Below are positions 27,167 through 64,000 of a DNA stretch of 64,000 bases, piece by piece. Every line of letters begins with the position of its first letter. Position 1 is the stretch's first letter. Source of the stretch: Escherichia coli. Its GTDB lineage: Bacteria > Pseudomonadota > Gammaproteobacteria > Enterobacterales > Enterobacteriaceae. The stretch lies in the NCBI RefSeq assembly GCF_001677475.2, contig NZ_CP015229.1. One strand, given 5' to 3'. A program made the position numbers and the translations under genes. The notes beneath the pieces were generated by a model. It had not been told where the DNA came from. It saw only the letters and a list, made by a program, of their open reading frames with translations, and ran no database searches.

Positions 27167-27231
27167 AAAGAAAACGCCTGTACTAAAACCGACCCGTGGT
27201 ACAGGCGAAGAATACGGGCCTACATCGGAAG
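27167..27231 (-). ncRNA. rydC: Small regulatory RNA RydC
   Basis: Minus-strand sequence CTTCCGATGTAGGCCCGTATTCTTCGCCTGTACCACGGGTCGGTTTTAGTACAGGCGTTTTCTTT matches remembered RydC; in the cybB-ydcA intergenic region; terminator hairpin plus U-tract. Confidence 0.75.
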
Positions 27232-27575: not shown

Positions 27576-27646
27576 AGTGTAAAAGGGGTGCCATGAGAAA
27601 ATGAATCCGCTAGTCAGATGCGCGGGGAAAATTCCCGCGCTTGCCC

Positions 27647-27843
<197 letters not shown>

Positions 27844-27854
<11 letters not shown>

Positions 27855-27900
27855 TCGTTGGCCTCGGTTGATAGAAATATCGGTCGGGGCCTTCGTCTTT
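27844..27900 (+). ncRNA. sokB: Predicted SokB antisense RNA (antitoxin of hokB); boundaries approximate
   Basis: Plus-strand promoter-like TTGCCG (27808-27813), 17-bp spacer, TAAGAT (27831-27836) inside mokB, transcribing antisense across the mokB start; imperfect hairpin then U-rich tract near 27859-27900. Confidence 0.4.
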
Positions 27901-28128
27901 CTGATTCCCGGTTAGCCTGAAAACAGAAAGTCTCAGGCACCCGTGAGCATCCTATGTGGTTTCCTTAGGGACGAAAATAATCACCTGACGAAATTGCGTG
28001 CTGTTTTCCAGAATTTTTCGTTATTCGGTTTAGCCAGTTTAATCATTCGTTACTCTCTTCATTCCAATGGCATTAATCTTCTCTGCAATAATTGTTGTAA
28101 AAATGTGACGCAAAGAGGTTTTTGGTCG

Positions 28129-34236: not shown

Positions 34237-34375
34237 TTGTTTTTTCTTCGGCACCTTCTTCGGGAGGTGCTGTCTGGTTAAACACGATCCCGCTCGCATT
34301 TTTCCCTAAGTTAAATGAGTAATCTGATGGTGTGTATTTCAGATACAACTTGTCAGCCACTAACAGGGAGTGCGT

Positions 34376-34600
34376 ATGTTTCCAGAATACCGAGATTTAA
34401 TATCCCGTCTGAAAAACGAAAATCCTCGCTTTATGTCCTTGTTCGATAAACACAATAAACTTGATCATGAAATTGCCAGAAAGGAAGGTTCCGACGGTCG
34501 AGGTTACAATGCGGAAGTGGTCCGCATGAAAAAACAAAAGCTACAGTTAAAAGATGAGATGCTCAAAATCCTGCAGCAGGAGAGCGTCAAAGAGGTGTAA
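34376..34600 (+). CDS. ydcH: DUF465-family small protein YdcH (74 aa)
   Basis: Track ORF 34370..34600; start at ATG 34376 (MFPEYRDLISRLK). Confidence 0.8.
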   Translation: MFPEYRDLISRLKNENPRFMSLFDKHNKLDHEIARKEGSDGRGYNAEVVRMKKQKLQLKDEMLKILQQESVKEV

Positions 34601-34608
34601 ACTTTCCT

Positions 34609-34633
34609 AAGCCGCCAGCCAGGCGGCTTTTTT
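34609..34633 (+). terminator. Rho-independent terminator after ydcH
   Basis: Stem AAGCCGCC/GGCGGCTT with loop AGCC, then T6. Confidence 0.75.
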
Positions 34634-34662
34634 AACAACTGCATGGATTGACTGGAGATAAG

Positions 34663-35202
34663 ATGACTGAAACGATAAAAGTAAGCGAATCACTTGAATT
34701 ACATGCTGTTGCGGAAAGTCATGTCACACCTCTTTATCAGTTAATCTGTAAAAATAAAACCTGGTTACAGCAGTCGCTAAACTGGCCGCAGTTCGTTCAG
34801 AGTGAAGAGGACACGCGAAAAACGGTGCAGGGTAATGTGATGTTGCATCAACGCGGCTATGCCAAAATGTTCATGATTTTCAAAGAAGATGAACTTATCG
34901 GCGTTATCTCGTTTAATCGAATTGAACCACTGAATAAAACCGCTGAAATCGGCTACTGGCTGGACGAATCTCATCAGGGGCAGGGGATCATTTCTCAGGC
35001 GTTGCAGGCACTGATTCATCATTACGCCCAGTCTGGTGAACTTAGACGCTTCGTGATCAAATGTCGGGTGGACAATCCGCAAAGCAACCAGGTCGCTTTG
35101 CGCAATGGTTTTATTCTTGAAGGTTGCCTGAAACAGGCTGAGTTCCTGAATGATGCCTATGATGATGTGAACTTATACGCGCGTATTATCGATTCACAAT
35201 AA
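34663..35202 (+). CDS. rimL: Ribosomal-protein-L7/L12 serine acetyltransferase (GNAT)
   Basis: Start at ATG 34663 ([14 protein letters not shown]) inside track ORF 34648..35202; 179 aa. Confidence 0.85.
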
Positions 35203-36174
35203 CCCTGCCAGCGGCGTTCGCGTAATGCGCTCCTCGCCGTTAATGACTTTTGGACCACGGACATGAACCGTGTCGCCATCAAAGGCTTCAACGACGGCGT
35301 GGTCGGTTAACTCCACATGGTTTTCAATTATCACCGCATCTGTAATACGGCTCTTACCTTGTATTACAACGTGCTCGTCGAGCAGAATCGGTCCGCCACG
35401 TACCACGGCATTTCCGCCAATCAAGACATGATGTTTTAACACACAATTACCTTCCACAATGGCATATTCCGCCACCTGCGAACTGTAATGAATCGTCGGA
35501 ATGGCATCTTCTTCTATGCCAGCTTTCACCTGCGCGTGACCGTAGACTTTAGCGCAATCGCATAGCCATACGTTGTTCTCTTCATTACCTTCAACACTGG
35601 CAAAATCAAAAACTTCGGCGCGATGTTCAATAAAAGCATACCGGACGACGGCATCGCCATAAATTTGTGCCTGGTGGACAATACGCGAGGCGCTAACCCT
35701 CGCGCGATCATAAATTTGTAGCAGGAGTTGATGGTCGGGCGTTAAGCCTTGTGCGGCGACGATCATAGAATGTTGATCAATTAAGGCGTGACCAAATATT
35801 CTACATTGACCGCAAACTAATGAGTCACGAATGGTGACGCTGTCACTTATATATGCACCCTGGCTGATTTCACTATTATCGATCCAGACATTATCCGTTG
35901 CGTATACCTCTCCCCACAGCACGCTTATGCCGGTGATACGCGTATTCCCGGAAATCACCGCTCCGCCGAACGCAATAGCATTCTGGTCGTAAATCCAGCA
36001 ATTTCCTTCCTGTGCTAACACCGTTTCGCAATCGATCCAGCCGCCAGCGGTTCCTGCTATCACATCGTTAAAATCGCTCATGGCGATAATCTGCCGTAAT
36101 AACACACTTTTTTTAGTGCCATCATCCTGATAACTAAAGGCTCGCTGTTCTTCACTTAGACGATATTTGCGCAT
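35194..36174 (-). CDS. ydcK: Hexapeptide-repeat (left-handed beta-helix) protein YdcK
   Basis: Track ORF, 326 aa; 3' end overlaps rimL by 9 bp (convergent). Confidence 0.85.
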
Positions 36175-36297
36175 AGCGTTTTCCCACAGGTGACTTACTA
36201 TAACCGTAGCAAATTCTGCGGCTCTGGCTATGCTCGAGAAAATTCCATAAAATGCATTTCAAATATACTTTATAAATTAAACAAAATGAGTAAGAAG

Positions 36298-37290
36298 ATG
36301 CAGAGCGATAAAGTGCTCAATTTGCCGGCAGGCTACTTTGGTATTGTGTTGGGGACGATAGGGATGGGATTTGCCTGGCGCTATGCCAGCCAGGTTTGGC
36401 AGGTCAGCCACTGGTTAGGGGATGGGCTGGTGATTCTGGCGATGATCATCTGGGGATTATTAACTAGCGCATTTATTACCCGACTCATACGCTTTCCGCA
36501 TAGCGTGCTGGCAGAAGTGCGCCATCCAGTGATGAGCAGTTTTGTGAGTTTGTTTCCGGCAACGACGATGCTGGTGGCGATTGGTTTTGTTCCGTGGTTT
36601 CGCCCACTGGCGGTGTGCCTGTTCAGTTTTGGTGTCGTGGTTCAGTTGGCTTATGCCGCCTGGCAAACTGCGGGATTATGGCGCGGATCTCACCCTGAAG
36701 AAGCTACCACGCCTGGACTGTATCTGCCGACAGTTGCCAACAACTTTATCAGCGCAATGGCCTGTGGTGCGTTGGGCTACACCGACGCCGGTCTGGTGTT
36801 TTTAGGCGCAGGCGTTTTCTCATGGCTAAGCCTTGAACCGGTGATCTTGCAGCGTCTGCGCAGTTCGGGAGAATTACCCACGGCACTGCGGACATCACTC
36901 GGCATTCAGCTCGCTCCTGCGCTGGTGGCCTGTAGTGCCTGGCTGAGCGTCAACGGCGGCGAGGGTGACACGCTGGCGAAAATGCTTTTCGGTTATGGAC
37001 TGCTGCAACTGCTGTTTATGCTACGTCTGATGCCATGGTATCTCTCCCAGCCATTTAATGCTTCATTCTGGAGTTTCTCGTTCGGCGTATCTGCACTGGC
37101 AACCACCGGTTTGCATCTGGGGAGTGGCAGCGATAATGGATTTTTCCATACGCTGGCGGTGCCGCTGTTTATCTTTACCAATTTTATTATTGCAATACTG
37201 CTCATCCGTACTTTTGCGCTTCTGATGCAGGGAAAATTGTTAGTCAGAACCGAGCGCGCCGTTTTAATGAAAGCAGAGGACAAAGAATGA
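36298..37290 (+). CDS. tehA: Tellurite resistance protein TehA (C4-dicarboxylate transporter/SLAC1 family)
   Basis: Start at ATG 36298 ([19 protein letters not shown]) inside track ORF 36190..37290; 330 aa; polytopic membrane protein. Confidence 0.9.
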
Positions 37291-51625: not shown

Positions 51626-51859
51626 ATGTCGCATCTGGATGAAGTCATCGCGCGCGTGGATGCCGCGATTGAAGAGAGCGTCATTGCCCATATGAACGAA
51701 TTATTAATCGCCCTGAGCGATGACGCGGAGTTAAGTCGGGAAGATCGCTACACCCAGCAGCAGCGTTTGCGCACCGCTATTGCTCATCACGGTCGCAAGC
51801 ATAAAGAAGATATGGAAGCGCGCCACGAACAGTTAACCAAAGGCGGCACCATCCTCTGA
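51626..51859 (+). CDS. ydcY: Small protein YdcY
   Basis: Track ORF, 77 aa; matches remembered YdcY. Confidence 0.8.
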   Translation: MSHLDEVIARVDAAIEESVIAHMNELLIALSDDAELSREDRYTQQQRLRTAIAHHGRKHKEDMEARHEQLTKGGTIL

Positions 51860-52309
51860 TTAAAATGAGCGTCTGGCCACCAACCAGGCGCCAACCACAA
51901 GTAAAATTGCGCCACAAATTGGTCCGAACAACGCCCGTAGTGGTACGCCATGACTGCGGAAGATATCCAGAACCAGACCGCCAATCAGCTGGCTGGCGAC
52001 CAGTACTGCAATAGTTGTCGCCGCTCCCACATTCTGATATCCGCTGATACTAGCGAAGACAAAAAACGAACCCAGCAAGCCAGGTATAAGTGTCCACCAG
52101 CGCACGCTGGACACCAGTTCGCCAAACCCCGCCATGCCTTGTTTAAACCATAAAATAGAAACAAAGAGCACAATCCCCACCAGTGAGTTCAGCAACATGG
52201 CGATGAGAATGGTAGAGGAGGTCTGGGTGATGCGCACCATAAGCGTGTTCTGGATTACCAGACCAATTCCGGCGGCAATCAAAAAAGCAAGGGTGAGCGA
52301 CTGATTCAT
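51860..52309 (-). CDS. ydcZ: DMT-superfamily inner-membrane protein YdcZ
   Basis: Track ORF, 149 aa; hydrophobic. Confidence 0.85.
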   Translation of the reverse strand: MNQSLTLAFLIAAGIGLVIQNTLMVRITQTSSTILIAMLLNSLVGIVLFVSILWFKQGMAGFGELVSSVRWWTLIPGLLGSFFVFASISGYQNVGAATTIAVLVASQLIGGLVLDIFRSHGVPLRALFGPICGAILLVVGAWLVARRSF

Positions 52310-59945: not shown

Positions 59946-60295
59946 TGCTCTCCCTGATTGCTTTAATGAAAAAGTCATATAAGTTGCCATGAACAATGTT
60001 TATTCATCCTGGCGATGACAAGATTCACCATTATTCTTTATGGGTATAACTGTCGGCGCAGAATCCTACCTTTTATCGTGTAACGATGCAAAATAATCCC
60101 GCTATAAATATGAGGGGATAAAGGCGGCCGGCAACAAAATAGCAACCTGATGAAATTTTGACGGAAACAACCACTATTGGTTTGATGATGCCCGACGGCA
60201 GTCCTACTCTTGCGCCACTCGTTCGTCGCTCTGAACGCCAGTGGTTGCAGTGGACACTGGCGTGGTTGGCTCATTGAATAGTGAGGTGCTAGCAC

Positions 60296-60472
60296 ATGAC
60301 GGGTTTCAGGGGTAATACACCAAATACCAATACAATTGCTGATTATATGAGCCAATTGCCGATGTTACAGAAAAGGCTAAAAAATGTAAGAGGCATGCAG
60401 GATGATAAACGCGCTATTGCCCAACAGGGGTTTCTGGAATTAGTCCTGTTCCATGGTCATTACAACTCTTAA
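60296..60472 (+). CDS. Hypothetical small protein (58 aa); identity not recognised
   Basis: ATG 60296 preceded by GAGGTG; hand translation MTGFRGNTPNTNTIADYMSQLPMLQKRLKNVRGMQDDKRAIAQQGFLELVLFHGHYNS; not in ORF track. Confidence 0.25.
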   Translation: MTGFRGNTPNTNTIADYMSQLPMLQKRLKNVRGMQDDKRAIAQQGFLELVLFHGHYNS

Positions 60473-60882
60473 AACATTACTTCAATATAATTAATGTGTA
60501 TATCATTCCCGATATTAATTTATGAAGTGAATTTGATATATTCCGAATTCTTAATTTACATTACTAATGTATGGGGCATAACGTTAAGATTGCTATGTGC
60601 AGATTAACATATCAGGGTGGGGCGGTAGCGTTTACAGATATTAATCAATTGATGAGAATTATGTTAACTGCGTAATCATTTGCATCGATTATTGATATTG
60701 AAGATAGATTAATAAAAATGCTGAGAATTAATGTTAAAAAATCATAACGGGAAACGTTGATAACTTGCTTTGATTTCATTTTCTATGAAGATGATGTCAT
60801 CAATACTGTATAAAGTGGAAATGTTGAACATCAAAGAGCGTTTGTGTTTTATCTGAAAGATATTATTTCCAGGGGGAAGGAT

Positions 60883-61013
60883 ATGTCATTAAGGAGAATG
60901 ACATCTGGTGAATTAACATTGGCCAGATCGATTTTTGAGAATACAATTGATTATAGCAAGGTATGGATCCACAATGAAAAATATTTGCCTGGTCAAGGGG
61001 AAAGAACAGCGAT
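60883..61013 (+). pseudogene. 5' fragment of a host ORF interrupted by the prophage insertion
   Basis: ATG 60883 with GGAAGGA RBS; MSLRRMTSGELTLARSIFENTIDYSKVWIHNEKYLPGQGERTAI then reads straight into the Mu-type end at 61014 (track ORF 60844..61083 is the chimera). Confidence 0.4.
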
Positions 61014-61190
61014 TGTATTGATTCACTTGAAGTACGAAAAAAACCGGGAGGACATTGGATTATTCGGGATTTGGCGGGATTAGATTTAGTGGGGCTTGCA
61101 AGCCTGTAGGACAGATTTTAGCCGTTACATCTTGAAACGCGAAAGATTGTTGGAAACAGCTTTTGATTCATTAAAGACACGAAAAGCAAT
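61014..61190 (+). repeat. Prophage attL with transposase end-binding sites L1, L2 and L3
   Basis: L1 about 61019-61040 (TGATTCACTTGAAGTACGAAAA), L2 about 61128-61147 (CTTGAAACGCGAAAGA), L3 about 61164-61186 (TGATTCATTAAAGACACGAAAAG); terminal 5'-TG. Confidence 0.8.
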
Positions 61191-61352
61191 TACTTCACGC
61201 ATCATTTCAAGTACAGCTTCAAAAATGCTTCAAAAACGGTAACAACCAGGCTTTCGGCAAGTGATGTGTGTCAAAAACAATCATCACTGTTTGGGTATCT
61301 TACATATGTAATTACCTAGAGTGAAGTTTATGTCTTAGCTATTACCTGGTTG

Positions 61353-61877
61353 TTATACAGCTTTCTTTACATCGTTTTCTCTTACAGGGAAATTATGTTC
61401 TTTGCCTTCATACTGAGACAAAATCTCTCTCACTTTTTCAGGTGGTAATGCCTGAAGAGTTTGCAGGGTTTTCTGTTGATCCACAGTAATCCCTAATGCC
61501 TCTAATGCCTTATCTTTACTGACAATTGTAGGCATAAGTCCTTTAATCCCTGCTACACGAATGATCTCCACAGCTGCGGCCTGCTCATCTGGTGTTAAGA
61601 AGCTCATTGCATAAATTAGCCTCTCATCAACTGTATGGGCGATTGATGTATGCACTGGTTTATCAGAAAGTGAGGCTCCTTTAATGGCCCTACGTGTTTC
61701 TTCTGGCAGACTGTTGATGTGATACTCATAAGCGACACCTTTCCCACCGTGACGCTGACGTTTTACCCAATCTTCCGCCACAGCTTTCCTGGTAATGTTA
61801 GTCGCCAACTTTGGTACACCAGGCATCCCTTCCAGCTCTTTCGCATTAAACCATTCTTTGATTTCAAAAGACATCAT
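61353..61877 (-). CDS. c: Mu-type lysogeny repressor (174 aa)
   Basis: Track ORF; C-terminus ...NDVKKAV resembles Mu repressor ...QEVKKAV; N-terminal region resembles the transposase N-terminus; leftward orientation as in Mu. Confidence 0.85.
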   Translation of the reverse strand: MMSFEIKEWFNAKELEGMPGVPKLATNITRKAVAEDWVKRQRHGGKGVAYEYHINSLPEETRRAIKGASLSDKPVHTSIAHTVDERLIYAMSFLTPDEQAAAVEIIRVAGIKGLMPTIVSKDKALEALGITVDQQKTLQTLQALPPEKVREILSQYEGKEHNFPVRENDVKKAV

Positions 61878-62057
61878 TTAAAATCCTAGCGATTTCAATA
61901 GAGACAAAATAAATTCATATAAAAATCATGCCGTTATATGAAATCATGGTAAATACTTTCAAATCTCTATTGATTTGAAAATGATTCCACACTACATTGC
62001 ACGATATGCCGTGAGCTACTTTATAGCGTAGCTCACGGGGGAATCTGAAAGGATTAC
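61878..62057. promoter_or_regulatory. Prophage early control region (operators, divergent promoters, transposition enhancer) by position
   Basis: Intergenic AT-rich region between divergent repressor and ner; individual operators not resolved by eye. Confidence 0.5.
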
Positions 62058-62062
62058 ATGAA

Positions 62063-62284
62063 ATGCATATGAATAAAAGAACTAACCGCCAAGATTGGCA
62101 CAGAGCTGACATCGTTGCAGAGCTACGAAAACGCAATATGTCACTAGCTGAATTGGGAAGATCTAATCATCTTTCGTCTTCAACATTAAAAAATGCTTTG
62201 GATAAGAGATATCCGAAAGCGGAGAAAATCATTGCAGATGCACTGGGAATGACACCGCAAGATATTTGGCCGTCTCGATACTAG
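62063..62284 (+). CDS. ner: Ner-like DNA-binding regulator of early transcription (73 aa)
   Basis: Track ORF; [33 protein letters not shown]... resembles Mu Ner (...DWHRADVIAGLKKRKLSLSALSR...); AAGGA RBS. Confidence 0.85.
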
Positions 62285-62291
62285 GTGCGCT

Positions 62292-64000
62292 ATGAAAGAA
62301 TGGTATACAGCAAAAGAGTTGCTCGGTTTGGCAGGTTTACCAAAGCAAGCCACTAACATTACACGTAAGGCACAAAGAGAAGGCTGGGAGTTCAGGCAGG
62401 TTGCAGGGACTAAAGGTGTATCATTTGAATTCAATATCAAATCATTCCCTGTCGCATTACGTGCTGAAATTCTGTTGCAACAAGGGAGAATTGAAACAAG
62501 CCAGGGGTATTTTGAAATCGCCCGCCCCACGCTGGAAGCCCACGATTACGATCGCGGGGCACTGTGGAGCAAATGGGATAAAGCCAGCGATTCCCAGCGC
62601 AGACTTGCTGAAAAATGGTTGCCTGCAGTTCAGGCCGCAGACGAAATGCTGAACCAGGGGATTTCAACAAAAACGGCTTTTGCGACCGTTGCAGGACATT
62701 ACCAGGTCAGCGCATCCACTTTGCGAGACAAGTATTACCAGGTACAGAAGTTTGCGAAGCCTGACTGGGCGGCTGCACTTGTTGATGGACGTGGTGCATC
62801 TCGTCGCAATGTTCACAAAAGTGAATTTGACGAGGATGCCTGGCAGTTTCTGATTGCAGATTATCTGCGACCGGAAAAACCCGCCTTCCGCAAATGTTAT
62901 GAGCGTCTGGAACTGGCAGCCCGCGAGCATGGCTGGAGTATTCCCTCCCGTGCCACGGCCTTTCGCCGGATTCAGCAACTGGACGAGGCAATGGTTGTTG
63001 CCTGTCGTGAAGGTGAACATGCACTGATGCATCTGATACCGGCACAGCAGCGAACTGTGGAACACCTGGACGCCATGCAGTGGATCAACGGCGACGGTTA
63101 TCTGCATAACGTCTTTGTACGCTGGTTTAACGGTGATGTGATCCGCCCGAAAACATGGTTCTGGCAGGATGTGAAAACCCGAAAAATTCTGGGCTGGCGC
63201 TGCGATGTGAGCGAGAACATTGATTCAATTCGCCTCTCGTTCATGGATGTGGTGACACGCTACGGCATCCCGGAAGATTTTCACATCACCATTGATAACA
63301 CCCGTGGGGCAGCGAATAAATGGCTGACGGGGGGCGCGCCCAATCGTTACCGCTTTAAGGTGAAAGAGGACGATCCAAAGGGACTGTTTTTACTGATGGG
63401 CGCGAAAATGCACTGGACAAGCGTTGTTGCCGGTAAAGGCTGGGGCCAGGCAAAACCTGTTGAACGTGCTTTCGGTGTTGGTGGGCTTGAGGAATACGTT
63501 GATAAGCATCCGGCACTGGCTGGCGCATATACGGGGCCAAATCCGCAGGCAAAACCTGATAACTATGGCGACCGTGCTGTTGATGCAGAGCTGTTTCTGA
63601 AAACCCTTGCTGAAGGTGTGGCGATGTTCAATGCCAGAACAGGCCGTGAAACAGAAATGTGCGGGGGCAAACTCTCGTTTGATGATGTTTTCGAGCGTGA
63701 ATACGCCAGAACGATTGTGCGTAAGCCAACCGAAGAACAAAAACGGATGCTGTTACTGCCTGCCGAAGCGGTGAACGTTTCACGCAAAGGCGAGTTTACG
63801 CTTAAAGTTGGCGGCTCCCTTAAAGGCGCGAAAAACGTTTATTACAACATGGCGTTAATGAATGCAGGCGTGAAAAAAGTTGTGGTCAGGTTTGATCCGC
63901 AGCAGCTACACAGCACAGTTTATTGCTACACCCTGGACGGTCGGTTTATCTGTGAAGCGGAATGTCTGGCACCTGTTGCATTTAATGATGCTGCGGCAGG
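62292..64000 (+). CDS. A: MuA-type DDE transposase, N-terminal ~569 codons (3' end outside window)
   Basis: Not in ORF track because there is no stop before the window end; hand translation [32 protein letters not shown]... with DDE residues at codons 268 (INGDGY), 335 (ITIDNTRG) and 391 (PVERAF). Confidence 0.9.

Follow-up and report, generated by a model that had tools for sequence, protein, structure and literature searches.

The rimL-ydcK junction

The 64,000-nt stretch of Escherichia coli DNA analyzed here (the window) carries rimL and ydcK, two adjacent genes on opposite strands that meet tail to tail and share the end of their coding sequences (Table 1). On the + strand, 35185-35202 reads ATT ATC GAT TCA CAA TAA (I I D S Q *), with rimL ending at 35202, and on the - strand the complement of 35194-35205 reads GGG TTA TTG TGA (G L L *), with ydcK ending at 35194. 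The common 9 bp are TCA CAA TAA on the + strand (RimL Ser178, Gln179 and stop) and TTA TTG TGA on the - strand (YdcK Leu325, Leu326 and stop). The codons of the two genes are in common register (phase 123:321): the ydcK stop TGA is the complement of RimL Ser178 (TCA), and the rimL stop TAA is the complement of YdcK Leu325 (TTA). The 9-bp convergent overlap described in an earlier note on this DNA is therefore exact, being seen in the sequence, in the open reading frames (ORFs) and in the RefSeq annotation, and as it is read directly from the sequence, a chance statistic is not applicable to it. The rimL start is TTG 34648 in the ORF listing versus ATG 34663 in the annotation, with the 3' end identical either way, so the overlap is independent of the choice of start. 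Different start or stop assignments, which the earlier note had regarded as able to remove the overlap, cannot do so, as the stop is fixed by the frame and the start is irrelevant to the 3' end.

The same arrangement is widespread in the species. The RefSeq annotation of MG1655 (rimL b1427, 1498938..1499477, +; ydcK b1428, 1499469..1500449, -) and that of strain SCU-152 carry the identical 9-bp overlap. The 121-bp junction is present in 5412 of 5426 complete E. coli genomes, in 4212 of them at an identity of at least 99%. Among the junction matches listed, 7 of 8 have both genes annotated, and the other is a partial match with ydcK alone.

Both partners are real protein-coding genes, as judged by Pfam matches, orthologs in the PDB and the retention of both reading frames in 74 species (see below). 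RimL matches the GNAT family PF13302 (Acetyltransf_3, E 5.7e-23), and YdcK matches both B_solenoid_ydck (the YdcK beta-solenoid repeat) and LbH. Solved structures are available for both Salmonella orthologs: RimL (1Z9U/1S7K) aligns over residues 1-178 with an E value of about 4e-81, and YdcK (2F9C/2PIG) aligns over residues 1-325 with an E value of 2e-140. These alignments end at most one residue from the C-terminus of each protein.

Table 1 Positions of the features discussed, numbered from the first nucleotide of the window.
Feature	Position	Strand	Remarks
rimL CDS	34663..35202	+	Ribosomal protein L7/L12-serine N-acetyltransferase, 179 aa; stop TAA 35200-35202
ydcK CDS	35194..36174	-	YdcK family left-handed beta-helix protein, 326 aa; stop TGA, complement of 35194-35196
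Common 3' end, 9 bp	35194-35202	both	From direct sequence reading and ORFs
Inferred untranslated 3' extension of rimL transcript	35203..35312	+	Antisense to last ~37 ydcK codons; ends in published Rho region
Hairpin inside rimL, 11 bp	35078-35102		Fully paired on ydcK-sense strand
RydC	27168-27231	-	
yncP	27601-27669	+	22 aa
hokB	27647-27796	-	
sok antitoxin RNA	27791-27942	-	
ydcY	51626-51859	+	
ydcZ	51860-52309	-	
ydbA block	9717/9731		~9 kb in MG1655, with its IS2 and IS30 insertions; absent from window
IS609	38886/38887		In MG1655; precisely absent from window
Segment after ansP	60120-64000		No MG1655 counterpart
Left end of D108/Mu-like transposable prophage	61014-64000		97.8% identical to phage D108, from D108 base 1
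Prophage c repressor	61353-61877	-	
Prophage ner	62063-62284	+	
Prophage MuA transposase ORF	from near 62283		Runs off window end

Apart from the two MG1655 insertions that it lacks and the prophage-bearing segment at its right end (Table 1), the window is collinear with MG1655 at about 97-98% identity. For 34300-36400, the best match among complete RefSeq E. coli genomes reaches only 98.7%, which indicates that the strain belongs to a poorly sampled lineage.

Convergent overlaps in E. coli and retention of the overlap across Enterobacteriaceae

Overlaps of this kind are common. A survey of 58 species counted 1,890 convergent overlaps, 58 of them in E. coli; phase 123:321 accounted for 33% of the convergent overlaps of 5 nt or more, and a rho-independent terminator was found for only 20% of the E. 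coli genes in convergent overlaps (Lillo and Krakauer, 2007; PMC2174442). The rimL-ydcK pair fits this class, with shared 3' ends, a short overlap in phase 123:321 and no rho-independent terminator. About 17 convergent pairs lie in the 1462-1545 kb region of MG1655, which reaches beyond the window. Four of them overlap, namely yncP-hokB (23 bp), rimL-ydcK (9 bp), ydcD-yncO (86 bp) and pptA-yddH (4 bp), and one more pair abuts. Those inside the window are yncP-hokB and rimL-ydcK, which overlap, and ydcY-ydcZ, which abut; the first and last were checked in the window sequence. The 23 bp common to yncP and hokB form a convergent CDS overlap that adjoins the sok antitoxin RNA and RydC. The convergent genes ydcY and ydcZ have a 0-bp gap, with stops back to back and, as at rimL-ydcK, no room for a terminator.

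For the comparison across species, YdcK was aligned with relatives down to 66% identity, and the alignment was then scanned against one genome per species. This yielded 80 loci in Escherichia, Citrobacter, Salmonella, Enterobacter, Kosakonia, Phytobacter, Lelliottia, Leclercia, Pluralibacter, Pseudocitrobacter, Yokenella and other genera. The length of YdcK (326 aa) and its C-terminus RTPLAGLL, or a close variant, are kept down to 56% identity. A convergent rimL homolog is present at 74 of the 80 loci, and at 72 of these 74 Enterobacteriaceae species loci the two genes overlap: by 9 bp at 43, by 6 bp at 26, by 4 bp (TTAA) at 2 and by 18 bp at 1. The remaining two have gaps of 3 bp and 281 bp (one locus each). 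At these 74 loci the YdcK stop is at codon 327, with one of them (L080) matching over 51 fewer bases. The two 4-bp junctions, from Salmonella enterica subsp. arizonae and diarizonae, show that the junction itself can take the modal form of convergent overlaps, which is 4 bp long (TTAA, CTAA, CTAG or TTAG; PMC2174442); the E. coli pair differs from that form in having 9 bp and in nothing essential.

All 70 in-register overlaps follow one rule: the rimL stop is the complement of a YdcK Leu (TTA or CTA) or Ser (TCA) codon, pairing with L326, with L325 or S325, or with L322. Beyond the conserved YARII motif, the RimL tail is variable in both sequence and length, so the rimL stop moves while the end of YdcK is fixed. 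This is the pattern expected if convergent overlaps originate by stop-codon mutation, an origin that fits their genome-wide statistics (Lillo and Krakauer, 2007; PMC2174442). With the rimL stop inside a YdcK Leu or Ser codon, one late Leu or Ser codon of YdcK must stay TTA, CTA or TCA.

Two further observations concern the loci themselves. First, among the ydcK loci without rimL, GC hairpins lie beside the stop in L044, L063 and L078, of which only the one in L063 passes the terminator scan, on the opposite strand. Second, the gene for YdcK, a putative acyltransferase, is persistently paired with the gene for the L12 acetyltransferase (74 of 80 species loci, L003-L081). This lasting pairing may reflect the inertia of an overlapped pair, or it may hint at related function.

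Transcription and termination across the junction

Since both ORFs are real and their stops cannot be reassigned, the complete mRNA of each gene must cover the shared 9 bp. A scan for intrinsic terminators found none on the + strand between 34200 and 36500; on the - strand it found none at the junction and only two weak sites inside ydcK, upstream of its stop. The stops are likewise free of the GC-rich hairpin with an A tract and a U tract that marks a bidirectional intrinsic terminator. With no intergenic space and no terminator-like hairpin, each transcript must run on into the other gene. RNA folding over the junction gave z-scores of -0.65 and -1.55 for the two strands, no better than shuffles, and we therefore rejected a special RNA structure there. 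An Rfam search across the window found no family at the junction, its only matches being RydC and sok, elsewhere.

The 11-bp hairpin inside rimL (Table 1) begins and ends some 90 and 115 nt, respectively, beyond the ydcK stop. On the ydcK-sense strand it is fully paired (-16.4 kcal/mol in E. coli proper) and has no U tract. Its strength is confined to E. coli proper, with loss of the hairpin in E. albertii and other genera, for which reason a role as a protective 3' structure of the ydcK mRNA was rejected. The hairpin is probably coincidental, though it could mark a trimmed 3' end of this mRNA.

Published data place a Rho-dependent end on the rimL side. Adams et al (2021, eLife; PMC7815308, Supplementary file 2) reported a Rho termination region on the + strand at MG1655 1499587, in the class 'antisense ydcK', with upstream/downstream reads of 82/20 in untreated cells and 137/144 with bicyclomycin (Rho score 4.31, p 1.5e-8). 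This coordinate corresponds to window position 35312, 110 nt beyond the rimL stop; it transfers directly, as the window is identical to MG1655 over 35116-35338, and it is approximate, as the method uses 800-nt windows. Over the 400 nt downstream of the rimL stop, C exceeds G in most 50-nt intervals (C/G 1.0-3.0), as expected for Rho loading. Composition computed here and bicyclomycin sensitivity taken from the literature thus agree on a Rho-dependent terminator downstream of rimL. It is one of 1078 regions reported by Adams et al, and it does not differ from the others in kind: like the members of their largest class, it is bicyclomycin-sensitive and antisense to a gene. The supplements of the same study hold no - strand Rho region and no Term-seq 3' end (files 1 and 3) labeled rimL or ydcK.

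Antisense reads are present on both genes. In wild-type cells, the sense/antisense values were 35.9/9.2 RPM for rimL and 66.1/5.0 RPM for ydcK, with 54.9/0.17 RPM for the neighboring ydcH (Huang et al, 2020, mBio); these antisense counts are per gene, not per position. The same holds for the p19-captured dsRNA reads of that study, which amounted to 4.7-38.8 RPM on rimL and 4.6-220.7 RPM on ydcK, the latter made up of 133-221 RPM in four replicate data sets and 4.6 and 22.5 RPM in the two original ones. In the available part of the cluster tables of Huang et al (2020), neither rimL nor ydcK is among the matches listed. The pair is named in the ExcludonFinder publication (NAR, 2025; PMC12288877) as one of 165 convergent excludons of MG1655, for which the transcripts had to overlap in at least half of the 58 RNA-seq samples from this strain. 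This listing adds little beyond co-expression, as a CDS overlap and expression of both genes make the call near-automatic.

The earlier note had argued that the two transcripts must be antisense to each other at their 3' ends and had proposed strand-specific RNA-seq across the junction as the check. Published data of this type bear the argument out, with antisense reads on both genes, the excludon listing and the Rho region antisense to ydcK, and they accord with two real genes, fixed stops and the lack of a terminator. Two refinements apply. The word 'must' presupposes transcription of both genes in one and the same cell, and the 9 bp understate the overlap of the transcripts, the complementary stretch being about 100 nt or more.

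Probable by-product of packing versus possible antisense coupling

We consider rimL-ydcK to be a genuine and old tail-to-tail overlap without a spacer, whose antisense 3' ends are limited by Rho on the rimL side and are mainly a tolerated by-product of packing, and we assign this reading a probability of roughly 0.75. The overlap and its conservation, the Rho region, the antisense reads and the absence of an intrinsic terminator are observed here or in the literature; from them we infer that the arrangement is mainly a by-product of compact packing that originated by stop-codon mutation, that the two genes interfere with each other mildly if at all, and that the overlap did not evolve as a device for regulation. 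The conserved C-terminus of YdcK would set the sequence of the junction, and the variable RimL tail would continue until a YdcK Leu (TTA/CTA) or Ser (TCA) codon first provides a stop on the opposite strand, which would explain overlaps of 9, 6 or 18 bp in different genera. With no intergenic DNA there is no place for a dedicated terminator, and each transcript would run on as RNA antisense to the other gene; the one from rimL would be ended by Rho about 110 nt into ydcK. The 3' ends would be complementary whenever both genes are transcribed.

An unlikely alternative is a functional convergent excludon, in which the overlap would be retained for its effect: RNA polymerases would collide and RNase III would cleave the 3' duplex, so that transcribing one gene would repress the other. 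It would couple L12 acetylation by RimL inversely to YdcK activity. In its favor, the pair belongs to the E. coli excludome, whose pairs are, as a class, more syntenic than other adjacent pairs (PMC12288877). Retention of the overlap at 72 of 74 species loci, the p19-captured dsRNA reads on ydcK (Huang et al, 2020) and a precedent in E. coli, the antisense crosstalk of mscL and arfA, also speak for it. Conservation is expected anyway, however, as overlapping stops are hard to separate without a change of protein, and termination by Rho after about 110 nt limits the interference that the rimL-side antisense RNA could cause. Sense reads for both genes come from one bulk culture, which argues against mutual exclusion while neither proving nor excluding it in single cells. 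RimL and YdcK are not known to be functionally linked, the literature on ydcK is nearly empty, and our literature search found no pair-specific data on reciprocal expression of the two genes.

Like the convergent excludons, among which it is itself listed, rimL-ydcK consists of adjacent genes on opposite strands with overlapping transcription; most excludons, in contrast, overlap in UTRs that span a short intergenic region, 95 nt on average (PMC12288877), whereas the overlap at rimL-ydcK is one of coding sequences. Mutually exclusive expression, brought about by interference and RNase III, is part of the excludon concept and for rimL-ydcK would be a prediction; overlapping transcripts alone do not show regulation. 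The E. coli precedent, mscL-arfA, is likewise a convergent pair with RNA-complementary 3' regions. For mscL-arfA, in contrast to rimL-ydcK, an antisense regulatory effect has been demonstrated experimentally (PMC10070815).

The near-universal retention of the overlap across the family is not predicted by a passive reading and could alternatively reflect selection for a function of the overlap. In its specific form, selection for antisense coupling with reciprocal control of YdcK and RimL through their complementary 3' ends, we regard this as doubtful, with the odds heavily against it. If true, such coupling would point to a functional connection of YdcK with the modification of ribosomal proteins, and mutual regulation would be the first functional hint for YdcK.

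Bidirectional terminators are reportedly common between convergent E. coli genes, and a common intrinsic terminator near the junction would end both transcripts cleanly and leave a minimal antisense overlap. The hairpin inside rimL could serve this purpose, but on the ydcK-sense strand no U tract accompanies it, and its conservation does not extend beyond E. coli proper. Together with the absence of any terminator-like site at or near the junction and the bicyclomycin sensitivity of termination on the rimL strand, which marks it as Rho-dependent, these features largely refute a bidirectional terminator and make it highly improbable. We give almost no credence to an annotation artefact, in which one ORF would be no gene or would end elsewhere and the overlap would be unreal, and rejected it on account of the strong family matches of both ORFs, the solved orthologs that reach within one residue of both C-termini, stops that are fixed by the frame whatever the start, and the conservation of both reading frames in 74 species.

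The overlap at the rimL-ydcK junction is thus correct but ordinary, and was already known: it stands in the standard K-12 annotation, it belongs to a common class with dozens of members per genome, and its overlapping transcription has been catalogued, so that in itself it matters little. What the present analysis adds is modest and comparative, namely that the junction has stayed overlapped across the Enterobacteriaceae. The dependence of the rimL stop on a late YdcK codon places a small dual-coding constraint on synonymous codon choice at the YdcK C-terminus, a tidy if minor example of its kind.
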